Assembly: GCA_041662745.1 (NCBI GenBank)
Contig: JBAZRV010000010.1
Span: 1 to 13,264 of the forward strand
Length of the DNA stretch: 13,264 nucleotides
Direction of reading: 5' to 3'
Origin: Patescibacteria group bacterium
Lineage (GTDB): Bacteria > Patescibacteriota > Patescibacteriia > 2-01-FULL-39-33
In this document: positions 162 through 13,264 of the stretch, piece by piece
Position numbering within the stretch: position 1 is the stretch's first letter
Layout: every line of letters starts with the position of its first letter
Translations under genes and position numbers: made by a program
Notes under the pieces: model-generated
The model's database searches: none
What the model saw: the letters and a program-made list of their open reading frames with translations, nothing else
Told to the model about the DNA's origin: nothing

Positions 162-171
162 TATTATTTTG

Positions 172-187
172 CGGAGAGAGGGGGATT
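172..187 (-). repeat. Displaced duplicate of the tRNA-Ser 3' end (T-loop AAT through the discriminator base); direct repeat of 392-407
   Basis: cggagagagggggatt at 172-187 is identical to 392-407, which is the 3' 16 nt of the intact tRNA-Ser. Confidence 0.9.
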
Positions 188-336
188 TACTCGCTCACTC
201 GGCGCCAAAAAGCGCCTCATTCACTTGTCCAAGGTAGCCGCCAAACGCTCTTGATGGTCGCGTTTGTCGTCGCTCAATTATTCGGCTCGGCTTCTGCCTC
301 GCCTCATATCTCGCTCGCTACCTGTTCGAATCCGCC
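188..336 (-). ncRNA. Unclassified structured RNA-like element, copy A
   Basis: Homologous to 10017-10160. The first 27 nt (cgctcactcggcgccaaaaagcgcctc) are identical, then one mismatch, then 12 more identical nt. Helices (plus-strand coordinates): 233-238/317-322, 242-248/260-266, 284-291/296-303 and 201-205/212-216. Three of these covary with copy B. Read on the minus strand, one hairpin is GGC-GA-GGC-AGAA-GCC-GA-GCC, that is tandem G.A pairs plus a tetraloop. It lies between tRNA-Ser and the terminator at 134-161, so read-through from the tRNA could express it. Confidence 0.55.
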
Positions 337-391
337 ATTTTCAAACGGTATTTTTTTATGACGGTAAAAAACCGTCTTAAAAAAATATTTT

Positions 392-478
392 CGGAGAGAG
401 GGGGATTCGAACCCCCGAGGGCTTTGACACCCTACTCGCTTTCCAAGCGAGCGCACTCGACCACTATGCGATCTCTCC
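392..478 (-). tRNA. tRNA-Ser, anticodon GGA, class II with long variable arm, no encoded CCA
   Basis: The minus-strand sequence folds by hand into a cloverleaf. Acceptor stem GGAGAGA/TCTCTCC. D stem GCAT/GTGC with GG in the loop. Anticodon stem CTCGC/GCGAG with loop TTGGAAA. Variable arm AGGG..CCCT. T arm GGGGG-TTCGAAT-CCCCC. Discriminator G. Confidence 0.95.
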
Positions 479-480
479 AG

Positions 481-509
481 ATAAAAGGATGCTCTTCATG
501 GGGCATCCT
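481..509 (-). terminator. Rho-independent terminator downstream of the zinc-ribbon gene pair
   Basis: Stem aggatgc (486-492) pairs with gcatcct (503-509). On the minus strand it is followed by ttttat. Confidence 0.55.
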
Positions 510-515
510 GTTTTA

Positions 516-806
516 CTAACGCCGTTTAAGCCACCTCTTGAGTGAAATAAACCACGCTCCGACAGAACTAAATCCTACGGTGAGGGGGTAATCGGGCTGA
601 GCCACATTGCCCTGCTTCCATTGTTGGACCTTACGGCTATGGCAATACGGGCACCTATTAGCAAAAAGACCGAGGGACTTAAAAAAACTGCCGCAACCAT
701 GGCAAGAAAACTGTTTCCTTTTTAAAAATCCCCTGCTCACGCCGATAGACAAAAGCGAACCGGCCAAGACTAATAAGCAAACAAAAATCGTTAGCGCATA
801 AATCAT
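516..806 (-). CDS. Small membrane-anchored zinc-ribbon protein (N-terminal TM helix; CHGC...CPYC)
   Basis: 96-aa ORF. GGAGGT Shine-Dalgarno sits 6 nt upstream of the ATG. Hydrophobic N-terminus IFVCLLVLAGSLLSIGV. Two CxxC knuckles and a basic C-terminus. Starts 4 nt after the stop of the upstream paralog. Confidence 0.6.
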   Translation of the reverse strand: MIYALTIFVCLLVLAGSLLSIGVSRGFLKRKQFSCHGCGSFFKSLGLFANRCPYCHSRKVQQWKQGNVAQPDYPLTVGFSSVGAWFISLKRWLKRR

Positions 807-810
807 GGAA

Positions 811-1005
811 TTACCTCCGTCGCCGCAGACTTTGCGGATGTTTGAATTGGCGTTGTTTCCCCCGCCTGACTATAACATCACCTTTTCTGCGGCAATAAGG
901 ACAGACCGCGCCGAGGCGGACAGCAACCTTGAAACGCATATCGCAAAGCCAGCAATAAGCATCCAGCCTGGAATCGTGACTGTTCTTTTTCGCAACTTTA
1001 CCCAT
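811..1005 (-). CDS. Small basic zinc-ribbon protein (CWLC...CPYC)
   Basis: 64-aa ORF. GGGAGA Shine-Dalgarno sits 6 nt upstream of the ATG. Two CxxC knuckles, and the second (CPYC) is shared with the downstream ORF. Promoter lies upstream at 1067-1095. Confidence 0.55.
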   Translation of the reverse strand: MGKVAKKNSHDSRLDAYCWLCDMRFKVAVRLGAVCPYCRRKGDVIVRRGKQRQFKHPQSLRRRR

Positions 1006-1066
1006 GATTTTTCTCCCTGTCTCAAAAGACGTTGCGATTTAAAAAAAGTGCAAAAAGCGTAAATGT

Positions 1067-1095
1067 ATTATACAGTAAAAAACTGAAAATGTCCA
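1067..1095 (-). promoter_or_regulatory. Sigma70-type promoter for the zinc-ribbon gene pair
   Basis: Minus strand reads TGGACA (1090-1095), 17 nt spacer, TATAAT (1067-1072). Confidence 0.5.
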
Positions 1096-1099
1096 GCAT

Positions 1100-1128
1100 A
1101 AAAAACCGCCCCGGTTAGCGGAGCGGTT
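1100..1128 (-). terminator. Rho-independent terminator of the thioredoxin-like gene
   Basis: Stem aaccgc (1104-1109) pairs with gcggtt (1123-1128), with inner ccg/cgg pairs. A run of six T follows on the minus strand. Confidence 0.6.
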
Positions 1129-1141
1129 TACCCTGATAGAA

Positions 1142-1753
1142 TTATTTTAAGGCATCAATGGCGGCATTAAGCTCGGCGGCTTCTTTGGTTAAATCATTCT
1201 GCGCTTCATAACCGTTGCCGACACGAAAATACTTGCAACCCATGACAAACGTGGGAATTGATCCCTCGGGATTAAATTCCTGATAAACAGCTAAGGCCTC
1301 AGCCGGCACTTCAGTTTCTACGGCCGTGGTTAAAGTATTGTCTCCGGTGTCAACTTCCCAATGGTAGGCCTTGATCTTTCCGGCCTTAACCGCGTCAGCA
1401 ACTACCTTGTCAAAGGTCGGCTTAACCCATTCGCAATGCGGGCACCAAGTGGTAGAGAATAAATAAACCACCGGCTTACCGCCTTCTTTACAAACAACAG
1501 CGTCTTTCTTTTCTAGGAAAGTTGAAATGCCGGCAGCGGTCGGCTTGATTGATTCCGGGGCGCTTCCGACGGGCTGAGTCGTCTGAGCCGTTTGATCAGT
1601 CAAAACATCTGTTTTAGCCGAATTAACGTTTTGTCCTTTAACCATGACTATTGCCATGATAATCATGCCAATAACGGCAATAACGGCAATGCCGGCAAAA
1701 AGCCCTAATAAAAATTGCTGATCTTTTAATAAACCTTTGTTTTCGCCTTCCAT
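1142..1753 (-). CDS. Membrane-anchored thioredoxin-fold thiol:disulfide oxidoreductase (WCPHC active site)
   Basis: 203-aa ORF. One N-terminal TM helix (LLGLFAGIAVIAVIGMIIMAIVMV), a low-complexity linker, then a thioredoxin-like domain with a CPHC motif. Confidence 0.75.
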   Translation of the reverse strand: MEGENKGLLKDQQFLLGLFAGIAVIAVIGMIIMAIVMVKGQNVNSAKTDVLTDQTAQTTQPVGSAPESIKPTAAGISTFLEKKDAVVCKEGGKPVVYLFSTTWCPHCEWVKPTFDKVVADAVKAGKIKAYHWEVDTGDNTLTTAVETEVPAEALAVYQEFNPEGSIPTFVMGCKYFRVGNGYEAQNDLTKEAAELNAAIDALK

Positions 1754-1782
1754 AAAATTAAAAATTATTTTTAGGTAATGAT

Positions 1783-1811
1783 ATTATAGCTTTTTATTAA
1801 ACATAAAGCAA
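1783..1811 (-). promoter_or_regulatory. Sigma70-type promoter for the thioredoxin-like gene
   Basis: Minus strand reads TTGCTT (1806-1811, abutting the gatA stop), 17 nt spacer, TATAAT (1783-1788). Confidence 0.5.
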
Positions 1812-3272
1812 CTATTTTATCCCTGGTTTCTGTTTATGCCAATCCGTGGCCAATTGGTATTGATGGCCGACGCGCAAAACAGTCTTCTCAGCAAAGCGCT
1901 TGCCTAATAACTGGATGCCCACGGGCAGATTGTCAGCCAGACCGGCGGGGATAGTCAAACCGCAAATGCCGGCCAACGAGGCGGGAATAGTAAAAACGTC
2001 GGCTAAATACATCTTCAGCGGATCATTGATATTCTCCCCCAACTTGAAAGCGGGGGTCGGCGCAACCGGGGTCAAAATAACATCAACCTGCTCAAACGCC
2101 TGATCAAAATCCTCACACACTAAAGTGCGGATTTGCATGGCCTTCTTGTAGTAAGCATCATAATAGCCGGCCGATAAAGCATAGGTGCCGATCATAATGC
2201 GACGCTTGACTTCGGAACCGAAACCCTCGGCGCGAGTGTTAATGTAGATATCCAACAGATCTCCGGATTGCTTGGACAGGCCATAACGAATGCCGTCGTA
2301 GCGCGCCATATTGGAAGATACCTCCGACGGGCAGATAATGTAATAGGCGGCCACGGCCAAATCCGTATGGGGCAAGGAAATATCAATAACTTCAGCGCCC
2401 AACTCCTCCAATTTTTTTGCGGCTTCAAGAACGCGATCGCGTACGCCCACATCCATACCCTCAACAAAATACTCTTTGGGCAACCCGATTTTCAATCCCT
2501 TGATATTCTTTTTGATTTCTTCCGGATAATTATCCACGCTGATATTGGGCGTGGTAGAATCTTTTTCATCGCGTCCGGCCAAGTATTTCATGATCAGCGC
2601 GATATCTTCAACGTTTTTACCAAACGGGCCAATAGTATCCAAAGATGAAGTCATGGCCATCGCGCCATAGCGGGAAACACGGCCGTAAGTCACCTTCAAG
2701 CCGGACACGCCACAAAACGAAGCGGGTTCGCGGATAGAGCCGCCGGTATCCGAGCCGAGCGCATAAAAACACATATCGGCAGAAACAGCCGCAGCCGAAC
2801 CGCCCGATGAACCGCCGGGTACGCGATTCAAATCCCAGGGATTATGGGTCGGAAAAAAACCGGAATTTTCGGTTGATCCGCCCATGGCGAACTCATCCAA
2901 ATTGGTTTTGCCCAAGATCACCGCGCCCTCATCGCGCAACTTTTTGACGGCAGTGGCATCAAACGGCGGAATATAATTCTCTAAAATTTTTGAAGCGGCC
3001 GTACTGCGCAATCCCTTAGTGCAAAATATATCCTTGATAGCTACGGGTATGCCGGCTAAGGGAGAAATACTGTCCTCCGTCTGCAATAATTTATCAGCGG
3101 CCTCGGCCTGCGCCAACGCCTCCTCTTCATTTAAAGTCAAAAAAGCTTTAATTTTTTCGTCTTGGTTTTTGATTCGCTCAAAACAAGCCGCGGTCAATTC
3201 CCGGCTGGTGAATTTCTTTTCTCTCAGGCCGGCAAAGGCTTCAAGCAGTGTTAGTTTATTTAAATCAGGCAT
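1812..3272 (-). CDS. gatA: Glutamyl-tRNA(Gln)/aspartyl-tRNA(Asn) amidotransferase subunit A
   Basis: Amidase signature GGSSGGSAAAV and full-length GatA-like sequence. The ORF track starts at a TTG at 3326. I prefer the ATG at 3272 (MPDLNKLTLLEA...), which matches the usual GatA N-terminus and avoids overlap with gatC. Confidence 0.9.
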   Translation of the reverse strand: MPDLNKLTLLEAFAGLREKKFTSRELTAACFERIKNQDEKIKAFLTLNEEEALAQAEAADKLLQTEDSISPLAGIPVAIKDIFCTKGLRSTAASKILENYIPPFDATAVKKLRDEGAVILGKTNLDEFAMGGSTENSGFFPTHNPWDLNRVPGGSSGGSAAAVSADMCFYALGSDTGGSIREPASFCGVSGLKVTYGRVSRYGAMAMTSSLDTIGPFGKNVEDIALIMKYLAGRDEKDSTTPNISVDNYPEEIKKNIKGLKIGLPKEYFVEGMDVGVRDRVLEAAKKLEELGAEVIDISLPHTDLAVAAYYIICPSEVSSNMARYDGIRYGLSKQSGDLLDIYINTRAEGFGSEVKRRIMIGTYALSAGYYDAYYKKAMQIRTLVCEDFDQAFEQVDVILTPVAPTPAFKLGENINDPLKMYLADVFTIPASLAGICGLTIPAGLADNLPVGIQLLGKRFAEKTVLRVGHQYQLATDWHKQKPGIK

Positions 3273-3312
3273 AATATTGGCAAACAAAGCATTAACGTAT
3301 AAAAACGCAAAA

Positions 3313-3606
3313 TTACTTATTCTCAAATACCTTGGGGATCACGATATAGCCATCGCGGCTAACCGGTGCGCAAGCCACCAATTCCTCGCTGATGCCCGAT
3401 TCAATAATGCGGTCTTCGCGACTGATATTGACCAATCCGGTTACCTGAGAAGTCGGCTCCACCGTCGAGGTGTCTACGGCCTGCAAAGCATCAACATATT
3501 CAAGAATTCCGGACAACTGTTCGGCGTATCGGGCCTTTTCTTGGGCCGTCAGATTAAGGCGCGCCAACTTGGCGATATGCTCTACTTGTTCTATGGTTAA
3601 TTTCAT
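3313..3606 (-). CDS. gatC: Glutamyl-tRNA(Gln)/aspartyl-tRNA(Asn) amidotransferase subunit C
   Basis: MKLTIEQVEHIAKLARLNLT... is a typical GatC N-terminus. About 97 aa and immediately upstream of gatA. I chose the start at ATG 3606 rather than the ORF-track start at 3651. Confidence 0.85.
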   Translation of the reverse strand: MKLTIEQVEHIAKLARLNLTAQEKARYAEQLSGILEYVDALQAVDTSTVEPTSQVTGLVNISREDRIIESGISEELVACAPVSRDGYIVIPKVFENK

Positions 3607-3622
3607 AAATTTAGATACAAAA

Positions 3623-3651
3623 ATATTACCACCGAAGCGGAAATAAATCAA
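3623..3651 (-). promoter_or_regulatory. Sigma70-type promoter for gatCA
   Basis: Minus strand reads TTGATT (3646-3651), 17 nt spacer, TAATAT (3623-3628). Confidence 0.45.
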
Positions 3652-3668
3652 GGCTGGAATAAACGCGT

Positions 3669-5900
3669 TTAAGCCTTCCGGCTAACCCGGCCGGCCGGCT
3701 TATCGGCCGCTTTCATTCTGACCGTAAAAGTCGTTCCCCGGCCTTCCTGGCTGTCAAAAGTCACAGAACTGCCGTCATGAGCCTCAATAATGCGTTTAAC
3801 TATGAACAATCCCAAACCGGATCCGTCGGCATACATGTCTACGGCGTTTTTGGCACGGGAAAACTTATCAAACATTTTATCCTTATCCGCCTGCGGTATG
3901 CCGATGCCCGTATCTGCCACCTCCACCGCCAAGTAATCGCCGTCCTGTTTTAGGGATAGGGTTACCGATCCCTTGGCCGTATATTTAATGGCATTATCCA
4001 CCAGATTATACAGCGCCTGTTCCAGAAAATCGGCGCTGGTCATGACCGGAGACAGTTTTTTTGGCGGTAAAACCAGATTAAGTTTCAATCCTTTACTGAC
4101 CGCCAACTCATCAAGATCGCCGTGAATTGATTTCAAAATGTCTTCCAGTTGCATTGGTTTGGCCGTCAAAGGATCAATTTTAAACTCTTCGGTATCCACT
4201 TCGGAAGCGCGTAAAATATCGCCGATAATGACATTAAGCTTTTCCGCTTTATGATAAATATTATCAAAAAACTTTTTCTTTTCCGCCTCCGGCAATTTAT
4301 CCATGGAACCGTCACGGAACATGGAAATCGTGCCCTTAATGACTGAGACCGGCGTTTTAAGCTGATGGCTGGCAATATCCAAGAACTCGGAACGCATTTC
4401 CAATAATTTCTGCAAGTGTTCGGCACGATGCAACAGTTCTTGCGTCTGTTCATCAACTTTTTTCTGTAATACTCTATTAAAATTTTTGGTTTCTTGGTAA
4501 AGCCGGGCATTATCAATGGCGACAGCCGCTTGCAATGAAAGCGTGAAAAGCAAATTAAGATCCTCTTCGGTATAGGGATCGCCGGAACCCTTAGCGCCCA
4601 AAACGATTATACCCATTAATTTCCCCGATTTCAGCAGAGGCAGGCACAAGGAAGCCTCAATATGATGCATTTCCTTTTCCAGGGCCAGCAAGGATTTTTT
4701 TTCCTTATCGGTTTTAGCATCCCGAGCCAAAAGGAATAATTCCTCTCGCACCAACGGTTTGGCTATTTGCTTCAAATATTTGGTAAAAAAACTGTCTTGC
4801 ACCAAAGATATGCCGTTAGTAATATTGAAGCCGGTTACTTTGGCGATTCTATAATTGACTGCGGAGCCGTCATTCTCCGCCAAAAGCACGCCCGCCCTAT
4901 CCAGCCCCATGGTTTTTTTAATGGTGCCAACTATTAGGTTTATTATCTTATCAAGATCATTATAGTAATTAAGTTCGCGAGTCAATCCGGATATGGTCTT
5001 CTGATAATCATAAAGGGAATAGAAAAAATATTTATTGACAAAATCAGAAAACAACCTATGAAAACTGAACATTAGCAAGACAAATAACGGCGCCACCACG
5101 ATACCGGCCAAAATCGTATAATTGCTATATAGGCTGCCCCACAGATAGGGATAAACGATGATGATGACTGAATAGAAAAGATAAACAAAAATAGAATCGG
5201 CGCCGTAGACGACAAACCATCTGGCTATCACTCGCATATCCATTAACCGATATTTTAAAATAGCATAAGAAATAATGATAGTGAAAATCAATCCTGACAA
5301 ATAAGAGAAAGGATAGATGCTGATGCCGTAAGCCGGAAGATAGGCGGTTGGACCGATAGTGAACAAAACCAAAAAGGCGATAAAAAAATACTTGATCTGA
5401 TATTTAAGCAAGGCGGAATCAACTTTCTTGTAGTATCTGTAAACCTCAAAAAACCAAAAGACTACGTAAGAGCTGAAATAAACCAAGAAAAAATGATGGA
5501 ATAATCTGGCTTTGGTGTGGACTCCCCACTTATAATAAAAAGCGTCAGCCACAAAATAATCGGTACGGCTGACGATTAAGAAAAATATTGATAAAAAATA
5601 AGCAAAAAACAACCAAAAATTAGCCTTGCGATTAGTCAGAGCTAAGCAGAAATGATACATGAATGCCGGAATAAACACTACCGATCCATAAATGAAACGA
5701 TCCCAATAAATCGCTGACGTGATATCGTCGCGATTTAAAAACATCATAAAAGTGCCAAACAGCCAGAGAGAGATAACCAGGGCATGCAAAGCAAAAGTGA
5801 AATTCAAGCGGTTCTTGGGATTTCTTAATAATACTAACCCGCCAAGAATAAAAACGAAGATGGCGCTGATTAGCGGATATAATGTCGGCAAGCTCATCAT
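3669..5900 (-). CDS. Sensor histidine kinase: N-terminal multi-TM sensor domain, GAF domain, HisKA, HATPase_c
   Basis: 743 aa. About 290 N-terminal residues are strongly hydrophobic with multiple TM helices. A central GAF-like region follows. H-box SHQLKTP, N-box DNAIKYT, G1 DTGIGI, F-box FDKFSR, G2 GSGLGL. Confidence 0.88.
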   Translation of the reverse strand: MMSLPTLYPLISAIFVFILGGLVLLRNPKNRLNFTFALHALVISLWLFGTFMMFLNRDDITSAIYWDRFIYGSVVFIPAFMYHFCLALTNRKANFWLFFAYFLSIFFLIVSRTDYFVADAFYYKWGVHTKARLFHHFFLVYFSSYVVFWFFEVYRYYKKVDSALLKYQIKYFFIAFLVLFTIGPTAYLPAYGISIYPFSYLSGLIFTIIISYAILKYRLMDMRVIARWFVVYGADSIFVYLFYSVIIIVYPYLWGSLYSNYTILAGIVVAPLFVLLMFSFHRLFSDFVNKYFFYSLYDYQKTISGLTRELNYYNDLDKIINLIVGTIKKTMGLDRAGVLLAENDGSAVNYRIAKVTGFNITNGISLVQDSFFTKYLKQIAKPLVREELFLLARDAKTDKEKKSLLALEKEMHHIEASLCLPLLKSGKLMGIIVLGAKGSGDPYTEEDLNLLFTLSLQAAVAIDNARLYQETKNFNRVLQKKVDEQTQELLHRAEHLQKLLEMRSEFLDIASHQLKTPVSVIKGTISMFRDGSMDKLPEAEKKKFFDNIYHKAEKLNVIIGDILRASEVDTEEFKIDPLTAKPMQLEDILKSIHGDLDELAVSKGLKLNLVLPPKKLSPVMTSADFLEQALYNLVDNAIKYTAKGSVTLSLKQDGDYLAVEVADTGIGIPQADKDKMFDKFSRAKNAVDMYADGSGLGLFIVKRIIEAHDGSSVTFDSQEGRGTTFTVRMKAADKPAGRVSRKA

Positions 5901-5933
5901 TTTTTTGAAAAAATAATATTTACCACTCTAAAT

Positions 5934-5962
5934 ATTATAACACATTTATAAACTCTAAACAA
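5934..5962 (-). promoter_or_regulatory. Sigma70-type promoter for the histidine kinase gene (extended -10)
   Basis: Minus strand reads TTGTTT (5957-5962), 17 nt spacer, TGtTATAAT (-10 hexamer at 5934-5939). Confidence 0.5.
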
Positions 5963-5971
5963 AATCAGATG

Positions 5972-6002
5972 AAAAAGAGCCGTCTCCCGAAAGAGACGGC
6001 TC
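5972..6002 (-). terminator. Rho-independent terminator of the reductase-like gene
   Basis: 10-bp stem gagccgtctc (5977-5986) pairs with gagacggctc (5993-6002). Loop is ccgaaa. TTTTT follows on the minus strand. Confidence 0.7.
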
Positions 6003-6016
6003 ATAGAACGTGCTTG

Positions 6017-7081
6017 TCAGTTGACTGGTGGCAAGAAAAAACCAATTTCCTCCGCCGCCCGCCAAGTTTCATCCAGTCTTTGCAAGTCAACCGGACCGAC
6101 TTCATGGAATTGCCACTCCTTGAAGGAGTGGATGAAGGTGCCGGCGTGACAGGCATAAGTGATGCCCGGCTTCAGCCTCATCGTAAAGTGGATATCAACT
6201 TTCTGAGGATCGTAGGCCAACAATCCGCCTTCAAAATGCTTGATATCCGGGCGCGCCCGAAAATCACGCTTTTTGAGAGGATTGGGCACGGCGAAATTCA
6301 GCACCACGGCATCATCCGGAATGTGTTTGTATAAATCTCTGCGGGAAGGAATGGCCTTACCCGTGATCCACAACTGGCATGACGACCCCCAGCTCAAGGA
6401 GTTTGTCCACTCCAATTTATCGGAACAGTCGCCCGCTTCCTTAGCGATGCTTTGAAACCGTTCCAAATCTTGAGTGTACATCAACACCCTGACTCCGCGC
6501 CGAGCCAAATCAATGGCCACGGCTCGACCGATCTTTGAAGTTGATCCGGTCAGGAAAACCGGTCCCTTGATTTGATACTTCTCAATCAGGGCCAGGGCCT
6601 GCCGAATAACCGTTGCCGCGGTCAAGGTATCGCCATGGACTATCCAAGCCCATAAACGGTCGGATAACTCCTTGACGATCCAAGATCCTCCGTCAGTTAT
6701 CCTAATGTCTTTGATCAGAGCACCTAAGCCGATGACCTTGACTCCCTTTCTCTGAAGTTCAAGAACGGCGTCCAGGATTCGTTTCTTGATGCCGTTTCGG
6801 CGCGTCGGCAAAAAAAAGTGCCAACCGAAATTGCGCAACAGAACGGTCCGGCAGTCAATTTCTTCTCCGGCCGGCGTCTTAAACACAAATCTGTCAACCG
6901 TATCAAACGGCTTTTTTCCGACAAGATACTTCACCGACATCACCCAGCACATCGGGTAGAGCCAAAAAAACCAATAACGCCATTCCGGATGCCGGTGGAG
7001 GCAAGAGAATGGCCAAAGCAGCCAGTTCCAGCTTTCCACCCAGTGAGCCAAAAACGCCATTTTCCGTTCATTCGTTTCCAT
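6017..7081 (-). CDS. NAD(P)-binding Rossmann oxidoreductase resembling the long-chain acyl-ACP reductase family, with a Trp-rich hydrophobic N-terminal extension
   Basis: 354 aa. GGAG Shine-Dalgarno sits 9 nt upstream of the ATG. Dinucleotide-binding motif TGSTSKIGRAV. The C-terminal block ITYACHAGTFIHSFKEW...VDLQRLDETWRAAEEIGF parallels, from my memory of it, the cyanobacterial acyl-ACP reductase block containing the catalytic Cys (FACFAEAMLLEFEGW...). The family assignment rests on recollection and is not a search result. Confidence 0.5.
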   Translation of the reverse strand: METNERKMAFLAHWVESWNWLLWPFSCLHRHPEWRYWFFWLYPMCWVMSVKYLVGKKPFDTVDRFVFKTPAGEEIDCRTVLLRNFGWHFFLPTRRNGIKKRILDAVLELQRKGVKVIGLGALIKDIRITDGGSWIVKELSDRLWAWIVHGDTLTAATVIRQALALIEKYQIKGPVFLTGSTSKIGRAVAIDLARRGVRVLMYTQDLERFQSIAKEAGDCSDKLEWTNSLSWGSSCQLWITGKAIPSRRDLYKHIPDDAVVLNFAVPNPLKKRDFRARPDIKHFEGGLLAYDPQKVDIHFTMRLKPGITYACHAGTFIHSFKEWQFHEVGPVDLQRLDETWRAAEEIGFFLPPVN

Positions 7082-7155
7082 GGCTTATAACTCCTATGTT
7101 GTAACGTTTGTTGTAACGTTCAAGTGTTAAAACCGGCAACTTACCGATTAGTAAT

Positions 7156-7198
7156 ATAATATCATATTAGCGTTATTTTGTCAATAGAATTATCCACA
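7156..7198 (-). promoter_or_regulatory. Promoter cassette copy 1: TGTGGATAA (DnaA-box-like), TTGACA, 17 nt spacer, TATTAT
   Basis: Minus strand reads GTGGATAATTctaTTGACAAAATAacgCTaATATGATATTAT. -35 at 7179-7184, -10 at 7156-7161, ttatccaca at 7190-7198. Near-identical to 8905-8947. Confidence 0.6.
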
Positions 7199-7207
7199 GG
7201 CTACTAC

Positions 7208-7235
7208 TTGACAAATTTTTTACATATGGTATAAT
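7208..7235 (+). promoter_or_regulatory. Sigma70-type promoter with extended -10 for the small membrane protein gene
   Basis: TTGACA (7208-7213), 16 nt spacer, TGgTATAAT (-10 hexamer at 7230-7235). Divergent from the 7156-7198 promoter. Confidence 0.65.
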
Positions 7236-7299
7236 GTAAACATGTTGGAACATTCAATCTAATAGCGTAGCAATACGCAAACCAAGAAGGATGAGAAAA

Positions 7300-7530
7300 A
7301 TGAAAACTTTGCAAGAGATCACGATGCGTTTGCTGGGAGCAGTTGGTGGCGCGGTTTTCGGGTTGGTGGTCCTGGCCTATTTCTTTATTTCCGCCCTGGC
7401 GGACTACCGGAATTGCTGGCTGGGATGGAAAGACACGGCCAAGGGCTTGGCTGGCTGGGCGGTTTTCATTATCGCCGCCATCGGCTACTACCCCGTTATG
7501 GCTGTGGAACACGTAGTCAACGGCGACTAA
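7300..7530 (+). CDS. Small two-TM membrane protein (hypothetical)
   Basis: The ORF 7291-7530 has an AAGGA Shine-Dalgarno best spaced (8 nt) for the ATG at 7300. Two hydrophobic helices (LLGAVGGAVFGLVVLAYFFI and WAVFIIAAIGYYPVMAV). It has its own consensus promoter and terminator. Confidence 0.6.
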   Translation: MKTLQEITMRLLGAVGGAVFGLVVLAYFFISALADYRNCWLGWKDTAKGLAGWAVFIIAAIGYYPVMAVEHVVNGD

Positions 7531-7555
7531 ACCGTCGGCGGATAAACATGCACCG

Positions 7556-7590
7556 AAGATCGGCGAGCATTCAGCTTGCCGATCTTTTTA
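7556..7590 (+). terminator. Rho-independent terminator of the small membrane protein gene
   Basis: Stem aagatcggc (7556-7564) pairs with gccgatctt (7578-7586), followed by ttttaatttatttt. Confidence 0.7.
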
Positions 7591-7599
7591 ATTTATTTT

Positions 7600-7629
7600 A
7601 AAAGCCGGCGTCCATTTATGAACGCCGGC
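7600..7629 (-). terminator. Rho-independent terminator of the FadL-like gene
   Basis: Stem gccggcgt (7604-7611) pairs with acgccggc (7622-7629). TTTT follows on the minus strand. Confidence 0.65.
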
Positions 7630-7651
7630 GCAAAGATGCAAAGGACTCGGA

Positions 7652-8821
7652 TTAGAACCTCCAGCTTCCGGAAAGGCCGAAAGTCAAGATCTCGGTTGAC
7701 ATTTTTCTTCCGGAAACCTCATTGCTTCCCCAGCCGTAACTAGTGGAAGCAATCAAGCTGAAATGCTTAGTCGGCGAATACTTGATCCGTCCACCGAGAG
7801 CCCAGCCATCAACGTCAGGCGTCATATAGTCAGCCGTCTTGGTAATGGCCTTGCTCATGTAAGTCACCCCGCCGCCGGCCGTTAACTTGTCGCTGAACTT
7901 ATGGCTGGCGCCCAAATGAATGGCGATATTGTCCTGCCAATTCATGTTGACCGCTTTGGTAATCGGCAATTTATCAAAATTCACCATGGCTCGGTTCAAA
8001 CTATTCCGACTATATCCGAAATAAGTTACTTGACCGACCAATAGCCAATCTTCCCGTGGCTGATAACCGACGGAAAAATCAACTTTTTCGGGGAACTTGA
8101 ATTTCAAGTCAATGCCATCGCGTATTTTTAGCCCCAATAAACCGGCGGTGCAACGGCCTTCAAGTCTTACCGTAACCGGCGAAAGATAATTGACGCCGAA
8201 CGCCAGTTTATCCGTCGCTTGATACATAGCGCCTGCTTGCCAGCCATAACCAAAACCCAAAGCCTTCAGGTTAACCCGAACCGGCAAAGGTATGCGACTT
8301 ACATCAAACGGTCCGACCCAAGTCATCATGCCCATGGCAATAACCGGGCCAGCGCCGATTGACAAGCGATCAGTCAGCTGCTTGGAAATAAATGGCTTGA
8401 TATAGGTTCCGGACACAAGCGTCTGAGAATCCATGCCGTACCAAATATTCTTGAAGCTGGCGCCCAGGCCGTAGTTGGTGTGGATGTCCACGCCCCAGAC
8501 GGTTGACTCGTCAATCCTCTCGGCATAAGAAACCGCCGGCAGGACATGAGCCATATTCTTGGAAGTAAACTTTTTGCCGCGCTTATCCTCATAAGTGAAT
8601 TTGGGGACCATGACTTCGGTCCCCACCTCAACCAAGCGCTTGCCATTCAATTGCAACTTACTCCCCAGATTATGGGGAAACCACATTCCCGACGGATCGG
8701 ATCCCAGTCCGATATCGGTCGTGCCGGTCGCCGCCACGCGACTCAAGCCGCCAGCAAACGCCGACTGATCAAGACACAAAAAAATAGCAAAGACAACCGC
8801 GATAATAACGCTTTTCTTCAT
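7652..8821 (-). CDS. Outer-membrane beta-barrel protein, FadL/OmpP1/TodX-like (hydrophobic-compound transporter family)
   Basis: I chose the start at ATG 8821 (MKKSVIIAVVFAIFLCLDQSAFA, a signal peptide), with AGGAGA 6 nt upstream. The sequence shows an alternating beta-strand pattern rich in G/Y/S/T and a terminal ...LSGSWRF aromatic signature typical of OMPs. The FadL-family call comes from overall length and pattern and is not a search result. Confidence 0.55.
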   Translation of the reverse strand: MKKSVIIAVVFAIFLCLDQSAFAGGLSRVAATGTTDIGLGSDPSGMWFPHNLGSKLQLNGKRLVEVGTEVMVPKFTYEDKRGKKFTSKNMAHVLPAVSYAERIDESTVWGVDIHTNYGLGASFKNIWYGMDSQTLVSGTYIKPFISKQLTDRLSIGAGPVIAMGMMTWVGPFDVSRIPLPVRVNLKALGFGYGWQAGAMYQATDKLAFGVNYLSPVTVRLEGRCTAGLLGLKIRDGIDLKFKFPEKVDFSVGYQPREDWLLVGQVTYFGYSRNSLNRAMVNFDKLPITKAVNMNWQDNIAIHLGASHKFSDKLTAGGGVTYMSKAITKTADYMTPDVDGWALGGRIKYSPTKHFSLIASTSYGWGSNEVSGRKMSTEILTFGLSGSWRF

Positions 8822-8904
8822 CTCAGTTCTCCTCATTTTTATCCCCAAGGGGATGATCTTATGTACTAAAGGCATTCAAACAACATAGTTTATGCCAATA
8901 TATA

Positions 8905-8947
8905 ATTATATCATATCAGTGATATTTTGTCAAGACAATTATCCACA
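8905..8947 (-). promoter_or_regulatory. Promoter cassette copy 2: TGTGGATAA (DnaA-box-like), TTGACA, 17 nt spacer, TATAAT
   Basis: Minus strand reads GTGGATAATTgtcTTGACAAAATAtcaCTgATATGATATAAT. -35 at 8928-8933, -10 at 8905-8910, ttatccaca at 8939-8947. Confidence 0.6.
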
Positions 8948-8950
8948 ACT

Positions 8951-8979
8951 AAAAATCGTCGCAATAAGCGACGATTTTT
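8951..8979 (-). terminator. Rho-independent (bidirectional-looking) terminator of the 306-aa gene
   Basis: Stem atcgtcgc (8955-8962) pairs with gcgacgat (8968-8975). It is flanked by A5 and T4 tracts. Confidence 0.65.
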
Positions 8980-8994
8980 CTAACATTTTAATTA

Positions 8995-9912
8995 TTATTT
9001 TGATTTAAACCAGCTTTTAACCTTCTGCCAACCGCGCCGGATAATCCCTTCACCCGTCTCGGATGAAGCCGTTGAAGAAATGTATTCTCCCACCTGATTC
9101 TCTTTGATTGAGGACTTTAAAACATCATGCGCCCTCTGCCTGATACCGGCATACTCGGGCAAAGAGGCGGCATTGGCCTTAAAAGCGGCCTCGGATTTTT
9201 GTTCCAAATCCTTACCTCGCAAAGATAAGAAATCAGGATGTTCCCCATCCCCTTTTAGTGTCGGGGCTTTAACATGCTCCATCATTAAATCCAAGGCTTG
9301 CTCCATGTCCGATCCTTCGTACAGATCCTTTCCCTCCCTAATCGGTTGAACTTTCTTAACAACTTTTTCCAGCTGGCTTATATTGAAACTATGCTCCACC
9401 GCCTGCGTTAGGTATTGCAATTTATATTCCTCAAATTTTTCCCGATGCCGGTTGTATCTCTCGGCCAACAGCCCCTTGACAATCTCTCTGACTTTTTGCC
9501 TTAGCTGCAAATCACGGCCGCGGGTGATTAAATCGGTTTTTTCGCCCAAAACTTTCCTTTCCGTTTCGTAGGCCCCGCTGATTGAGCCCAAAACTATCTT
9601 ATCCAAATTATCCTTCAGGTATTTTTCCGCTTCAGCAATTTTCCCGACAATATATTCCGGCGGAAAAAAATCCTTAGAACCCTGAATGCCCTTGGTTTTA
9701 GAAACGGCCTGGCGTAAATCCTCTAACGATTTCGCTTCGTCAATTGCCTTTTTTAATTTCTCTAATTTTTTACTATTTTCATATTGAGACAACTTCTCCT
9801 CATAGGCCTCATCGTCTAAAAAGGACTCACCGCCGAATTCCTGATCTATTATCGGCTCATCTACTTCTTGGCTGGTGAACGGTTTAGATTCCTGATTTTT
9901 GTTCCTAATCAT
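8995..9912 (-). CDS. Hypothetical soluble, highly charged (K/E-rich, likely helical) protein
   Basis: Long ORF. The ORF-track start at 9954 is a TTG. The first ATG is at 9912 (MIRNKNQESK...). No recognisable domain, TM helix or signal peptide. The start is uncertain. Confidence 0.55.
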   Translation of the reverse strand: MIRNKNQESKPFTSQEVDEPIIDQEFGGESFLDDEAYEEKLSQYENSKKLEKLKKAIDEAKSLEDLRQAVSKTKGIQGSKDFFPPEYIVGKIAEAEKYLKDNLDKIVLGSISGAYETERKVLGEKTDLITRGRDLQLRQKVREIVKGLLAERYNRHREKFEEYKLQYLTQAVEHSFNISQLEKVVKKVQPIREGKDLYEGSDMEQALDLMMEHVKAPTLKGDGEHPDFLSLRGKDLEQKSEAAFKANAASLPEYAGIRQRAHDVLKSSIKENQVGEYISSTASSETGEGIIRRGWQKVKSWFKSK

Positions 9913-9978
9913 ATGATTATAGATTAAACGCCAAAAGGCATAAAAACTAAACAAATAGCGGAACTGGACTTGAAACTA

Positions 9979-10004
9979 AATTGGTTTTAATATTTACTAG
10001 CACG
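9979..10004. repeat. 26-nt direct repeat flanking element B (copy 1)
   Basis: aattggttttaatatttactagcacg is identical to 10191-10216. Confidence 0.9.
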
Positions 10005-10016
10005 GGGTGAAGGAAT

Positions 10017-10160
10017 TACGCGCTCACTCGGCGCCAAAAAGCGCCTCGTTCACTTGTCCAGGGTCAGCGCCAATCATTATCAATGATTGGCGACGCTCGA
10101 CTGCTCTTTTCGCCTTCCGGCTCAAAGCTTGTCTCGCTTCTGACCTGTTCGATTCTCGCC
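10017..10160 (-). ncRNA. Unclassified structured RNA-like element, copy B
   Basis: Homolog of 188-336. Helices (plus-strand coordinates): 10062-10067/10140-10145, 10068-10076/10084-10092, 10106-10114/10119-10127 and 10030-10034/10041-10045. Read on the minus strand, one hairpin is CTTT-GA-GCC-GGAA-GGC-GA-AAAG, that is tandem G.A pairs plus a GNRA tetraloop. Confidence 0.55.
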
Positions 10161-10163
10161 CCG

Positions 10164-10192
10164 ATATTAAATATTTAAAACCAACTTGATAA
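10164..10192 (-). promoter_or_regulatory. Candidate promoter for element B
   Basis: Minus strand reads TTATCA (10187-10192), 17 nt spacer, TAATAT (10164-10169). This places a start about 7 nt downstream, at the beginning of the conserved GAATCGAACAGG block. The -35 is weak. Confidence 0.35.
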
Positions 10193-10216
10193 TTGGTTTT
10201 AATATTTACTAGCACG
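10191..10216. repeat. 26-nt direct repeat flanking element B (copy 2)
   Basis: Identical to 9979-10004. A degenerate third copy (aattggtttt..ttact) lies at 10266-10280. Confidence 0.9.
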
Positions 10217-10438
10217 AATTGCTGGATTAGAATGGAACCCGTTTATCCGTTTAATCCGTAATGTTAATTGGTTTTTTACTGACTTTGATTTTGACAGATT
10301 CTACGCCACAATCTAATAAAGAATTACTGCTTTTTTAGCCAAGAGTATACTTATGTGATTCTTACCAGACATGACCAGTTTAAGGCGATTAAAAGACACT
10401 AGATGAACAAGATGACCTCTTAATGGTTTAGATTGCCC

Positions 10439-12013
10439 CTAACTTACTGGCTGAGTATAATTATTTTGGCTATTAGATGAATAGGATTGGGAAAATGCCA
10501 GATAACCCATTAATATTAAATTTAACGGAGCAACTATCATTAGAAGTCCAAGCCATTTGGATTTACCTAGTTTTTCAGTTATATCCATCCATGGAACAAG
10601 GGCGACTATAATGTTAGCTATAGGAACAAACATTAGTAGGAACCACCAATACGGTCTGCCTGCGCATTTCAATATTAAGAAAAGATTAGCGATTGGCACC
10701 CAAGCCATCCAAAGACCATTAATTACTAATTTTTTAGCGATAAATTGCAGGCATAGGGCACAATAAACATATAGCAGAAGAAAAAGAATAATAATTATGA
10801 CAACGAAATATCCACCAAAATCAGATATAATCGTATTAGCTAAGGCGTTAAATGAGCTGGTAGTATTTATTGGTTCAACTACTGCTGGCACTATAATGTC
10901 GGTAGCCGTTGAATTTATGATATCAGCCGTAGGCGTAGCCACTAAATTATTAATATCATCGGTGCTGGAAATTGGAGTATTTCCAGCCGATGCCATCTGA
11001 CCTGCCAATACTACTTGCGTTGGTGTAAATTTTCCATCGCCAACTGGATTAAAGCCGCCATAAATCTCAGTCATATCGCCATAACCATCGCCATCAGTGT
11101 CAAATTTATTCGGATCAGTGCCCCATTTGGCTTCATTAACATCAAGTAAACCATCACCATCAGTGTCAATTAGGTTGCCGACTGACATGCAAATAGATGC
11201 GCAACTGTTGCTTTGACATGGCGTAATCTTTTCCCATTTGCAATCTTTAGTTAAAAATGCAATGCCAGTTTTTCCCTCGGGAGTTTTGTGGCAATAATAT
11301 CCGTCGCTTTTCTCACAACTCTTAGTGCAATAAGCATGGCCATACGTGTCGGGTAAAATCTCGCATAAACCTGGACACTTAATATCCTCACTTGCGACAG
11401 TGCCATTTGGTAGGCAATATCTTTCTGTTATCGTCTGTGGTTCAAGTCCGCAAGTATCTGATATATTTTCTATTTTGCCGTTAATTGTGATGATTCCAGC
11501 TTTAAAAATATCCTTGCCTCCGTCGGAATCAGTACAAGTACTACCACTTCCACCACTAGCCGTCTTGATACAAGCGCCATTAAGACAGCCATTCGGACAC
11601 TTATATGGGGTTATTTTAATTGTATAATTGCCTGATGAATTTTTACCACAGCTCGTTTCACTGACAGTGCTCTTGTCTGTGCAGGCATCGGCGCCAGTCG
11701 CCTGTTCGCCATTGCCTTTAGCAGAAACTGTGCCTTTGACAAAATAATCCGTTCCGCCATCCGTGTCCGTGCATGTATAGGGAGTACTATCCTCAATACA
11801 GGCTCCATCCTTACAACCGACATAACAAGAGTATGAACTTTCGGCTGCGCCAAATCCGCTACCGATTTCAGCCGCGGATTTTATTGTGCAATCCGTATCC
11901 TGAAAGCCGACATGGTTATTGTCAATACAAACCATTTTCATCTCACAAGTGGCGGCCAGAGCACTGGAGCACAGCAAAAAAATACTTATACTGGCAATAA
12001 TAATTTTTTTCAT
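10439..12013 (-). CDS. Secreted Cys-rich modular protein with thrombospondin-type-3-like Ca-binding repeats, fused to a C-terminal multi-TM domain (DUF5684-like)
   Basis: I chose the start at ATG 12013 (MKKIIIASISIFLLCSSALA, a signal peptide). Repeated modules CTD[TS]DGGxDxF...CPNGCLNGAC. DTDGDGLLD and DTDGDGYGD repeats. The C-terminal region WMAWVPIANLFLILKCAGRPYWWFLLMFVPIANII matches my recollection of the DUF5684 signature. Confidence 0.65.
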   Translation of the reverse strand: MKKIIIASISIFLLCSSALAATCEMKMVCIDNNHVGFQDTDCTIKSAAEIGSGFGAAESSYSCYVGCKDGACIEDSTPYTCTDTDGGTDYFVKGTVSAKGNGEQATGADACTDKSTVSETSCGKNSSGNYTIKITPYKCPNGCLNGACIKTASGGSGSTCTDSDGGKDIFKAGIITINGKIENISDTCGLEPQTITERYCLPNGTVASEDIKCPGLCEILPDTYGHAYCTKSCEKSDGYYCHKTPEGKTGIAFLTKDCKWEKITPCQSNSCASICMSVGNLIDTDGDGLLDVNEAKWGTDPNKFDTDGDGYGDMTEIYGGFNPVGDGKFTPTQVVLAGQMASAGNTPISSTDDINNLVATPTADIINSTATDIIVPAVVEPINTTSSFNALANTIISDFGGYFVVIIIILFLLLYVYCALCLQFIAKKLVINGLWMAWVPIANLFLILKCAGRPYWWFLLMFVPIANIIVALVPWMDITEKLGKSKWLGLLMIVAPLNLILMGYLAFSQSYSSNSQNNYTQPVS

Positions 12014-12023
12014 AGTTGTTAAA

Positions 12024-12872
12024 TTAATTTGGCTTATAAGCCGACATATATAAAACAAACGATAAAGTAGATAAAAATACTAATGCCAATTTCAATTCTT
12101 CTGATGTAAAAGCTGGATTATTTTCAGGAAAAATCGGCCACCTTACTTTCTTTTCTGATGTTAAATTTTTGAAAAAATCAATTAAAGTATTGTCGTCTTG
12201 GTTTTCATTGATATTCTCAAATAATTTAATATCTAAGCCATTTATAGCATATGACCACGCTGGGTGATAAGAATAAGCCTGATTAATATTATTAGCGTTA
12301 TCCGTGATGCTCCAAAATGCGTTTCCAATGATTGCGGGCAAGAAGAAATTGCCAGTGATTTTTCCGATTAATTCCATACTGCCATTAAGCACTAAGTGTT
12401 TAGGAATATCCACAGTCGCCATCTTTGTATTATTTTTTATAAATTCAACTATGCCATTACTTATATTTGCCTGAATGCTGTTATTTGATCCGTCTTTCAA
12501 TAAAAATGAACCATTCAATGATTTACCGCTATTATCAAGAAAACGATATTTTAACTTAAGATGACTCAAGCCAGCGATATTTTGACCGTCATAATAACAG
12601 CATATAGCATCAATATTGACATCTAATAATAATCTACTTGCTTTTGTTATTTGAGCGATATCAAGTAGTCCAGTTTTGTCGAGAATATTACCTTTCAATA
12701 AATTTGTTTTTCCAGAAATAATACTATCTACTCTTGGGATAATGCTGTTTGTCGATTTCTTTAAGGTGCGACCAACCTTGCCCATCCAAATAAATTGGCG
12801 AATAATTATTGCCGCAACTGCAAGCCAGACTAATGAAAATGCAATCAAAAAAAGTATTTCTCCAGTAGACAT
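12024..12872 (-). CDS. Hypothetical membrane-anchored protein (N-terminal TM helix, possible C-terminal TM helix)
   Basis: 282-aa ORF ending 10 nt upstream of the next gene's start. N-rich, low-GC. No recognisable domain and no clear Shine-Dalgarno. Confidence 0.55.
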   Translation of the reverse strand: MSTGEILFLIAFSLVWLAVAAIIIRQFIWMGKVGRTLKKSTNSIIPRVDSIISGKTNLLKGNILDKTGLLDIAQITKASRLLLDVNIDAICCYYDGQNIAGLSHLKLKYRFLDNSGKSLNGSFLLKDGSNNSIQANISNGIVEFIKNNTKMATVDIPKHLVLNGSMELIGKITGNFFLPAIIGNAFWSITDNANNINQAYSYHPAWSYAINGLDIKLFENINENQDDNTLIDFFKNLTSEKKVRWPIFPENNPAFTSEELKLALVFLSTLSFVLYMSAYKPN

Positions 12873-12913
12873 AATTATTAATTATTTTAGAAACTAAGTA
12901 GAATTACTAATTT

Positions 12914-12941
12914 TATTATAGCAGAAATAACTGAATAACCA
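12914..12941 (-). promoter_or_regulatory. Candidate promoter for the 12872/12013 two-gene unit
   Basis: Minus strand reads TTGGTT (12936-12941), 16 nt spacer, TATAAT (12914-12919). Confidence 0.4.
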
Positions 12942-12946
12942 AAATC

Positions 12947-12985
12947 TAAGGGCTAACTCAGCCAAAATAAGCCAAGTTAGCCCTT
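12947..12985. other. 10-bp stem hairpin (terminator-like) just upstream of the candidate promoter
   Basis: aagggctaac (12947-12956) pairs with gttagccctt (12976-12985), with a 19-nt loop. atttt follows on the plus strand. Confidence 0.35.
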
Positions 12986-13218
12986 ATTTTATTAGATCGC
13001 CGCTTGACATTGCCTGATTCTATTAAAAGCCAAACAGCCAGAGCAAAAGAATTTATCTGGCTTCTTTAGATTTGGATAATCTCGGTACATTTTCGGTCGA
13101 ATAAACAGTCTGTGGCAGTTGGCGCATTCCCAGACGAGAGACTGTAAAATATTATGTGTAAATGGTATCTTGGGATGTAGGACGATTGGCGTCCTGCCTA
13201 ACCCAAGATCCTATGCCT

Positions 13219-13253
13219 AAAACAAAAAGAAGGCCGGCTGTCGATGAGCCGGC
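13219..13253 (-). terminator. Rho-independent terminator of a minus-strand gene lying beyond the right window edge
   Basis: Stem gccggct (13233-13239) pairs with agccggc (13247-13253). On the minus strand it is followed by ccttctttttgtttt. Confidence 0.55.
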
Positions 13254-13264
13254 GAATGAGTTGG

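Follow-up and report, generated by a model that had tools for sequence, protein, structure and literature searches.

A perfect 26-nt repeat around a short element in a Patescibacteria contig reads as the end of a tRNA-Trp gene with its trailer, and points to an apparently undescribed family of structured elements at tRNA 3' ends

MITEs of DDE transposons carry terminal inverted repeats and a fixed-length duplication of an arbitrary target, and elements of the IS200/IS605 (HUH) type and PATEs insert 3' of a short motif without duplication and have similar subterminal hairpins at both ends. In the IS110/IS1111 elements, the internal loops of a bridge or seek RNA are complementary to target and donor, and the transposase is of the DEDD type. 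The primer-binding site of retroviruses and LTR retrotransposons is a stretch of 18 nt complementary to a tRNA 3' end, bounded by m1A58. Closest to the locus described here are the CIMEs, which are elements that retain attL and attR and have lost their integration genes (PMC5704250), and the ssr9 module of ISPpu9 (IS110 family), which consists of a small RNA only, forms minicircles and spreads with the IS transposase (PMC12288879).

The window, which means the whole stretch of 13,264 nt of contig JBAZRV010000010.1 that was analysed, contains two copies, A and B, of a short element. A sequence-only reading had noted that B is bracketed by a perfect 26-nt direct repeat, and had taken this repeat for unrelated AT-rich sequence. 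The bracket itself was confirmed by a search of the whole window, in which AATTGGTTTTAATATTTACTAGCACG occurs at exactly two sites, 9979-10004 and 10191-10216 on the + strand, spaced 212 nt apart and enclosing 186 bp that contain copy B. The chance expectation for the 26-mer is 0 (200 shuffles), no further copy is present in the window at up to 3 mismatches, and among related contigs the 26-mer is confined to these two loci. A dispersed promoter or terminator module, which had been named as the alternative, is made unlikely by the presence of only two copies in the window and no match in viral contigs. A promoter consensus scan of the 26-mer gave nothing beyond the shuffled background, and such scans were uninformative. 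The decayed third copy proposed at 10266-10280 is weak, since its 10-mer AATTGGTTTT has 5 occurrences in all, including within two coding regions. To the left of the 26-mer the likeness persists imperfectly and with an indel (ACTTGAaacTAAATTGG at 9968-9984 against ACTTGA-TAATTGG at 10184-10196), and inside the bracket a third, partial and inverted copy at 10168-10184 forms with the right copy an AT-rich hairpin of about 22 bp.

It had been suggested that an orthologous locus with one repeat copy and no element should be looked for, and such an empty site was found in the sister contig L022, which is 99.99% identical to window 1-10016. The order in L022 is MiaB, tRNA-Thr, L33, an intact tRNA-Trp, the 21 nt TAGTAAATATTAAAACCAATT and the 305-aa gene that the window also has; the element is absent and the 26-mer is single, directly after the intact tRNA-Trp. 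Read on the minus strand, the left 26-mer of the window (9979-10004) is CGTGC, which corresponds to tRNA-Trp nt 70-74, followed by TAGTAAATATTAAAACCAATT, the same stretch that trails tRNA-Trp upstream of the 305-aa gene in L022. The last five nt of the left 26-mer belong to the tRNA because window 10000-10016 (GCACGGGGTGAAGGAAT) is the reverse complement of tRNA-Trp nt 58-74 (ATTCCTTCACCCCGTGC). This distal tRNA-Trp fragment of B, which overlaps the left 26-mer by these five nt, is identical at 17/17 positions to the 3' end of the tRNA-Trp gene located at L022 9842-9913. Judged by this comparison, the 26-mer reads as the last five bases of tRNA-Trp (nt 70-74) and the next 21 bases. The repeat was thus wrongly taken for unrelated AT-rich sequence, and the statement that it has no similarity to the tRNA-derived repeat around copy A holds for the letters and fails for the kind of sequence, since GCACG and the next 12 nt are the tRNA-Trp 3' end.

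The right 26-mer (10191-10216, minus strand) likewise consists of tRNA-Trp nt 70-74 and the trailer. It is found at the tRNA-facing end of the element, where the expected tRNA body is absent. The junction at 10216|10217 breaks from the tRNA at nt 69|70 and is also present in L020 and L021, and a truncation like that of tRNA-Trp at B is seen for tRNA-Glu in L009 and L013. The sequence joined to tRNA nt 70 is a spacer, S (10217-10438, minus strand), downstream of a DUF5684 gene, and it may be the right end of a second, larger insertion. Since the left 26-mer is the distal tRNA end with the 21 nt in front of the 305-aa gene, and the right one is the tRNA-side copy and an arm of the hairpin, the 26-mer is a repeat of the attL/attR type from a tRNA-end element, and not a target-site duplication of unrelated DNA. 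Its make-up of the tRNA-Trp end and the following bases also places B, like copy A, in a family of tRNA-end elements.

The 26 nt are probably a chance outcome of events at this locus and not a property of the insertion mechanism. In L024, a contig of 958 kb with 84% identity in MiaB, the order is L33, tRNA-Trp and a homologue of the 305-aa gene; the element is absent, and the native tRNA-Trp trailer is GTTGATAATTCTGTG. In the strain of L016, L026 and L028 (93% identity in the 305-aa gene), B is followed by the tRNA fragment, by the native trailer as in L024 and by a 265-aa ORF, and GTGC with the 21-mer, in a version with 1 indel, lies about 1 kb beyond, upstream of the 305-aa gene. All four contigs of this strain, in which the tRNA side of B was also sought, break inside B. 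Because these contigs keep the trailer and the ORF at this place, we infer that the window lineage has undergone a deletion of 1015 nt between two GTGC tetramers, which would have put the 21-mer directly behind tRNA-derived sequence. The length of the repeat would then go back to a tRNA-derived repeat of 17 nt, to this deletion, adjoining an older trailer copy to the distal fragment, and to a replacement of the tRNA body at nt 69|70. The 26-mer keeps its identity whether the window is read as a product of accretion or as a chimera, both of which are considered below.

The proposal that A and B are copies of one element family was upheld, and the first 62 nt of B are 89% identical to A. In B, the inner edge of the distal fragment (10000-10016, minus strand) falls at tRNA nt 57|58, as in other family members with an intact distal fragment. 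The fragment adjoins a conserved structured core (10017-10147, minus strand; 158 bits with the covariance model, no Rfam family), which contains a hairpin H1 (10019-10059), a long-range helix (10061-10067 with 10140-10145), a variable hairpin (10068-10092) and a small hairpin (10111-10123) with a GNRA loop on the minus strand. The next part is a T-loop-like segment (10148-10162, + strand; TTCGATTC and TCGCCCC), an inverted copy of the tRNA T-loop and T-stem, which forms a closing stem with 10003-10017. The AT-rich hairpin X (10163-10216, no strand assigned), with arms at 10168-10184 and 10193-10208 and the right arm within the right 26-mer, stands where other copies have a terminator hairpin between core and tRNA. 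Copy A has the corresponding parts: a distal tRNA-Ser(GGA) fragment (172-187, minus strand; nt 58-73, reverse complement CGGAGAGAGGGGGATT), the core with a T-loop-like segment (188-336, minus strand, 170 bits with the covariance model; segment TTCGAATCCGCC at 325-336), and, at 337-479 on the minus strand, a spacer and hairpin (337-390) and an intact tRNA-Ser(GGA) gene (391-479), whose 3' end at 392-407 is the proximal repeat. The earlier statement that neither copy has terminal inverted repeats is incorrect, as the ends can pair in both. In B, CGGGGTGA (10003-10010) and GAATT (10013-10017) stand against GATTC and TCGCCCCG (10151-10163), including an acceptor-like stem of 7-8 bp, GGGGTGA/TCGCCCC; in A, GGGGGATT stands against AATCCGCC with one mismatch. 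Two ORFs inside B are absent from the called genes on record, and the indels between copies are not in threes. A tmRNA, SRP RNA or tRNA-like gene was considered for B because of its GGGG start, the TTCGA and CCGGAAGG, and was rejected, since ARAGORN found neither tmRNA nor tRNA inside the element and Rfam gave nothing.

An RNAalifold prediction for the core from 14 copies contains 29 pairs, and compensatory changes were seen at 23 of them. Identical helices are predicted for the reverse strand, and the evidence for the strand is mixed. The G.U counts slightly favour the + strand (14 vs 6), whereas the tRNA strand is favoured by GNRA loops (GGAA, GGGA, GUAA) in the small hairpin, by a helix extension of the invariant hairpin H1 with two tandem G.A/A.G motifs, one of which is substituted by Watson-Crick pairs in copy 2 of L008, and by a U.G pair that is conserved in 12/14 copies. 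From the GNRA loops, the tandem G.A motifs in H1 and the kept U.G pair we think that the tRNA strand, on which the end of the molecule is the tRNA-like 3' segment, is probably the functional one, be it RNA or single-stranded DNA. A search of Rfam 15, including tmRNA, SRP RNA, HEARO and ribozymes, gave nothing relevant at E ≤1 for the window and at E ≤10 for B and the L003 copy.

Further copies were collected from genome and metagenome collections, with a pattern from the part common to A and B and then with a covariance model from the 14 copies. The family so far comprises about 20 copies from metagenomes of CPR bacteria (Patescibacteria), after exclusion of the pattern matches L005, L007, L010 and L017, which lie inside unrelated sequence and are due to chance. 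According to ARAGORN the copies are convergent to the 3' ends of genes for tRNA-Ser, Gly-TCC, Gly-GCC, His, Trp, Glu, Asp and Tyr. An intact tRNA adjoins copy A (Ser-GGA) and copies in L001 and L002 (Gly-TCC), L003 and L012 (His), L006 (Gly-GCC), L008 (Trp, and Tyr with a short variant), L011 (Glu) and L015 and L019 (Asp). On the tRNA strand, a typical unit runs from the intact tRNA through a hairpin, usually terminator-like, an inverted segment of nt 54-63/65, the core and a copy of nt 58-73/74 to the original downstream DNA; the core is about 130 nt long, and the whole unit is about 200 bp and without protein genes. The core, the inverted T-loop segment and a hairpin next to it are present in all copies, and the distal tRNA copy in most. 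The family appears to be undescribed, and a literature search that included the core sequence found no description of it.

The tRNA-derived parts follow the neighbouring tRNA. Exact direct repeats of 13-17 nt (nt 58 to 73/74) were tabulated in 8 of 11 tRNA-adjoining copies, that of L001 being 16 nt; in L011 and L015 only 6-7 exact nt of the distal fragment are left, in L006 none, and in L002 the fragment is partly decayed. Intact distal fragments start at tRNA nt 58 (nt 59 in L001), and six further copies have 16-17 nt exact. In 11 copies, the inverted segment agrees at 9-12 of 12 positions with nt 54-65 of the tRNA beside it; it follows the T-loop variant of its own tRNA, with TTCGAAT at Ser and Tyr, TCCGATT in L001 and L012, TTCGAGC at both Asp loci and TTCGATT otherwise. 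The tRNA-side hairpin has a different sequence in every copy. In L002 and L003, which belong to one MAG and adjoin tRNA-Gly and tRNA-His, the cores are about 98% identical and the tRNA parts and hairpins are unrelated. Tandem arrays are found in L001, L008 and L009, some of which mix subtypes. The sequence-only reading was therefore right that the flanking repeats are unequal in length and sequence and do not fit a target-site duplication by a DDE transposase, as they are variable and always a tRNA 3' end, and the related loci in essence bear out its suggestion of element variants that each bring along a copy of the target they occupy.

This arrangement sets the family apart from several of the systems above. 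With MITEs it has in common that the units are small, non-coding and multi-copy and have short inverted repeats; the DDE-transposon MITE is excluded, however, as the repeats are tRNA sequence of 13 to 26+ nt, always from the 3' end, in a fixed orientation and with an inverted repeat that is derived from the target. The IS200/IS605-type (HUH) and PATE elements are excluded by the long direct repeats and by a tRNA-side hairpin that differs in sequence from copy to copy. The likeness to a primer-binding site, with 16-17 nt complementary to a tRNA 3' end and an inner edge in the T-loop at nt 57|58, is a resemblance only, since the copy in the CPR elements includes A58 and stops at nt 73/74, and the family is without reverse transcriptase or LTRs. 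A retro-element with a primer-binding-site-like 17-mer was dropped for the same lack of a reverse transcriptase and because CCA is absent unless gene-encoded. A phage or plasmid origin was likewise dropped: blastn against phage and plasmid collections gave no match, and viral contigs matched neither the core nor the L020 junction.

Most features of the family are in line with those of CIMEs and other tRNA-integrative elements, namely the position at the 3' part of a tRNA gene that is left intact, direct repeats of the tRNA 3' segment, tandem accretion arrays, presence and absence between close strains, and the lack of an integrase of its own. For B the tRNA is intact in L022 but truncated at nt 69|70 in the window, and the direct repeat comprises 17 nt of tRNA-Trp, 5 of them inside the 26-mer. 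The CPR unit differs from a CIME in being only about 200 bp long and discrete rather than a decayed island, in having a covarying core common to eight tRNA species and an inverted T-loop copy, and in that no cognate integrase was found. Overall, it is rather likely that B is an integrase-less mini-element of the tRNA-end family which is moved by site-specific recombination in trans. This is supported by the tRNA 3'-end specificity, the intact tRNA, the tRNA-derived direct repeats, the arrays, the presence and absence in near-identical sequences, and a permuted B unit described below. No integrase, transposase, reverse transcriptase or phage family was detected when the ORFs of the window and the 422-aa ORF of L030 were compared with Pfam, and the genes on either side of B with PHROGs, and neighbouring ORFs at the other loci look by listing like housekeeping genes. 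The unit has no conserved ORF, and since no recombinase gene was found in or beside the copies, only an integrase-less derivative can be claimed.

The permuted unit is found in L020, which is 100% identical to window 10003-13264. Here the tRNA fragment of B ends at nt 71 and is followed by GGGTCTG, and the unit of hairpin and B, with a single copy of the 26-mer, stands in a non-tRNA context. One of its junctions has nt 70-74 and the other nt 58-71, so that at contig level the unit is a circular permutation in which the two junctions have only CG in common. Since the fragment reaches only to nt 71 in L020, the difference between the window, L022 and L020 comes down to an exchange within the 14 nt of tRNA-Trp nt 58-71. 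In the mechanism that we propose, units would move or be lost by conservative site-specific recombination inside the tRNA-derived identity, with the recombinase supplied in trans, as in a CIME-like life style. B would be the inner element at tRNA-Trp, and a larger insertion, with the DUF5684 gene and spacer S at its end, would have entered the tRNA 3' end around CG (nt 70-71), which would give the state in the window. In further cells or samples, excision of the outer insertion alone would produce a hairpin-tRNA junction, and its excision together with B would produce L022 and a circle with the junctions of L020. Composite excisions have been documented for CIME-ICE tandems (PMC5704250). Such accretion and excision would account for every junction seen.

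Other observations are less easily brought together with recombination in trans. No recognisable genes of mobile elements lie in the putative larger insertion, and a junction tRNA-Trp|GGGTCTG, which is predicted and would place G at tRNA position 72, was not seen in the contigs. With only 212 bp, a double-stranded circle would be under strain. A classical double-strand integrase reaction makes no use of the inverted T-loop copy, and the conserved fold and the near-identical cores of L002 and L003 are also left unexplained. As these two cores match and their ends are unrelated, either gene conversion between cores or a mobile core that re-templates its ends would be needed. Together, the inverted T-loop, the fold and the L002/L003 cores leave room for a guide- or structure-directed mechanism.

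The strongest alternative, which we regard as possible, is that the bracket in the window is a join of two B loci across a common stretch of about 226 nt, made by assembler error or by homologous recombination. One locus, alpha, would have B downstream of the DUF5684 gene and then GGGTCTG, as in L020, and the other, beta, would be canonical, between tRNA-Trp and the 305-aa gene. The common stretch would consist of nt 70-74, the hairpin, B and nt 58-71, and only the 212-nt spacing would become secondary. In agreement with this, the window matches L022 as far as 10016 and L020 from 10003 onwards (99.99-100%), and beyond these stretches both contigs read differently. The common unit exceeds the usual assembly k-mers, and contigs from three assemblies are broken within B or at its edge. 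The ends of two Logan contigs, at window 10187 and 10008, lie at k = 31 where they would be expected for an additional junction, "hairpin, 26-mer, GGGGTG", beside the hairpin. Such a junction would mean a hairpin adjoining intact tRNA-Trp, or a B-B tandem or circle, and would count for the recombination in trans as well. The pairing of the two flanks of B in the window could thus be an assembly or recombination product across the exact repeat of about 226 nt. However, accretion and excision cover the identical junctions with real molecules only, a second strain, that of L016, has B upstream of the 305-aa gene, and locus beta is complete in no contig. Homologues of the 282-aa protein, with which an empty site downstream of the DUF5684 gene was sought, gave only short contigs that end before the site.

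It is unlikely that the core acts as a catalytic or guide-like RNA, or as single-stranded DNA in a folded form, and directs insertion at the tRNA T-arm while its ends are re-templated for each target, either in the manner of IS110-type bridge/seek-RNA modules or by a new mechanism. The strong covariation points in this direction, as do the GNRA loops of the tRNA strand and its tandem G.A motifs, and one terminal segment can pair with one strand of the tRNA gene and the second with the other. The ends track the T-loop variants, including U55C in L001 and L012 and not at the corresponding loci L002 and L003, near-identical cores are found at two different tRNAs in one genome, and the dinucleotide common to the two L020 junctions would also fit. 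An RNA-only minicircle module that uses an IS110 transposase is documented (PMC12288879). The CPR unit resembles this ssr9 module of ISPpu9 in being small with only a structured RNA gene, in its site-specificity and palindromic target, in a putative recombination at a common dinucleotide and in an element palindrome that resembles the target. It differs in that no IS110 (DEDD) transposase was found with it, in the long perfect direct repeats of the target, in a target that is the tRNA T-arm and acceptor and not a REP sequence, and in that its circles are putative. The surroundings of the copies gave no DEDD, TnpB or IscB gene, the internal loops are unchanged between targets (L002 vs L003), and perfect direct repeats of 16-17 nt are unlike the products of IS110. 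The family is therefore not assigned to the IS110/IS1111 modules, in view of the ~98% identity of the L002 and L003 cores despite different targets, the missing transposase gene and the lack of an Rfam match. A TnpB-style guide was dropped, as the restored tRNA would recreate the target. The broader proposition that the core is a functional RNA or folded single-stranded DNA that specifies T-arm insertion, has its ends rewritten for each tRNA and retargets among at least eight tRNA species appears doubtful.

We consider it quite unlikely that the units are resident, non-mobile genes for an ncRNA beside tRNA genes, for instance with a part in tRNA 3'-end metabolism, and that the repeats arose by ordinary duplication, deletion or gene conversion. 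The conserved structure, the fixed orientation to the tRNA, hairpins that resemble terminators used jointly with the tRNA, and the lack of a mobility gene would agree with it, but presence and absence vary (L022 vs the window and L024 vs L016), arrays mix subtypes, the B unit is also found in a second, non-tRNA context (L020), and the element ends match each of the eight tRNA species that are occupied. Independent insertion of B into an AT-rich non-tRNA target with duplication of 26 nt, by staggered cuts, target-primed synthesis or template switching, as the sequence-only reading had envisaged, would give the perfect direct repeat on both sides but is very improbable and is contradicted by L022 and L020, since the 26-mer holds tRNA-Trp nt 70-74, runs into nt 58-69 on one side only and trails tRNA-Trp in L022, the right copy lies within the hairpin of the element itself, and the L020 unit has one 26-mer only.

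The odd 26-nt repeat thus has an ordinary, checkable origin, and the tracing of this origin exposed a family, apparently undescribed, in which each copy bears a direct and an inverted copy of the T-arm region of its own tRNA. If the units are moved in trans by tRNA-specific recombinases, no integrative element of this kind would be smaller, and the units would mark hidden islands in CPR genomes. If instead the core is an active RNA, it would represent a new targeting principle, and a core-directed insertion, if true, would make the family a new class of structure- or RNA-guided miniature mobile elements in these bacteria. For users of the MAGs it is relevant that exact repeats of 200-230 bp at tRNA genes break CPR assemblies or may mis-join them.

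The hosts were placed in Patescibacteria/CPR by naming MiaB homologues, and one contig belongs to Candidatus Falkowbacteria. Three of the MAG contigs carry the depositor label Gammaproteobacteria.

The T-loop reads TCCGATT, with C at position 55, in tRNA-Gly(TCC) of the metagenome contig L001 (L001:1994-2066) and in tRNA-His of contig L012 (L012:4768-4839), whereas it reads TTCGATT at the equivalent loci, L002 and L003; U55 is normally invariant in tRNAs. The U55C change is also present in the inverted segment of the adjoining element in both L001 and L012. Elements of two contigs, L001 and the array-bearing L008, contain a 20-nt GC-rich palindrome, CCTGCCTGCCGG(C/T)AGGCAGG (L001:2270-2300, L001:2505-2525 and L008:9458-9477), which is inserted at or within the junction that joins the core to the distal tRNA fragment, and the tRNAs hosting these elements are tRNA-Gly and tRNA-Tyr.

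In three arrays, two in contig L009 and one in L013 (L009:150-235, L009:1735-1818 and L013:2368-2445), the tRNA-Glu expected after the element is reduced to GTAG(T/C)C(C). Next comes an AT-rich segment of ~75 nt, TTAAAGTCTGATATTTC..AAAATTTTAACGAGATTATTGGGGAAATT.., which is conserved among the arrays and beyond which their sequences diverge. This parallels the truncation of tRNA-Trp in the window between 10216 and 10217. A small insertion distinct from the family, of an 'anticodon-loop' type, is found at L008:2637-2851, two genes from the tRNA-Trp array. Here a 38-nt duplicate of the 3' half of tRNA-Thr(TGT), spanning the anticodon loop through the 3' end, stands ahead of the tRNA itself, and the two are separated by ~100 nt of GC-rich, hairpin-forming DNA.

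Beside copy B, the window strain and the strain represented by L016 are distinguished by a 1015-nt indel (L016:365-1381 versus window:10001-10004) bordered by GCAC/GTGC. The extra DNA of the L016-type strain holds a membrane-like ORF of 265 aa, which gave no matches in Pfam or PHROG, and both strains are contained in sample ERZ27249449. The 10-mer AATTGGTTTT occurs five times in the window (positions 2900, 6038, 9979, 10191 and 10266) against 0.14 expected, with two of the occurrences within coding regions.

The gene at window:7652-8875 (minus strand) encodes an outer-membrane beta-barrel protein of the FadL/TodX type (Pfam Toluene_X, E = 7e-27), and such a gene is also kept in the 958-kb relative L024. 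The host genome appears to be of the Patescibacteria/CPR, a lineage not known to possess an outer membrane, for which such a protein is unexpected. Two copies of a 43-nt repeat, 86% identical (window:7156-7198 and window:8905-8947), sit immediately upstream of two genes of the minus strand, one CER1-like and the other the FadL-like gene. Since the repeat, read on that strand, contains TTGACA and the stretch TATGATATTAT, its sequence probably represents a promoter/operator shared by the two genes.

At the right side, the window (ending at 13264) and the independent contig L020 (L020:1-15) have ends differing by no more than 14 nt, and the match to L030, a 92% strain, ends at window position 12882, which together suggests a further repeat or variable boundary just past the window's right end.
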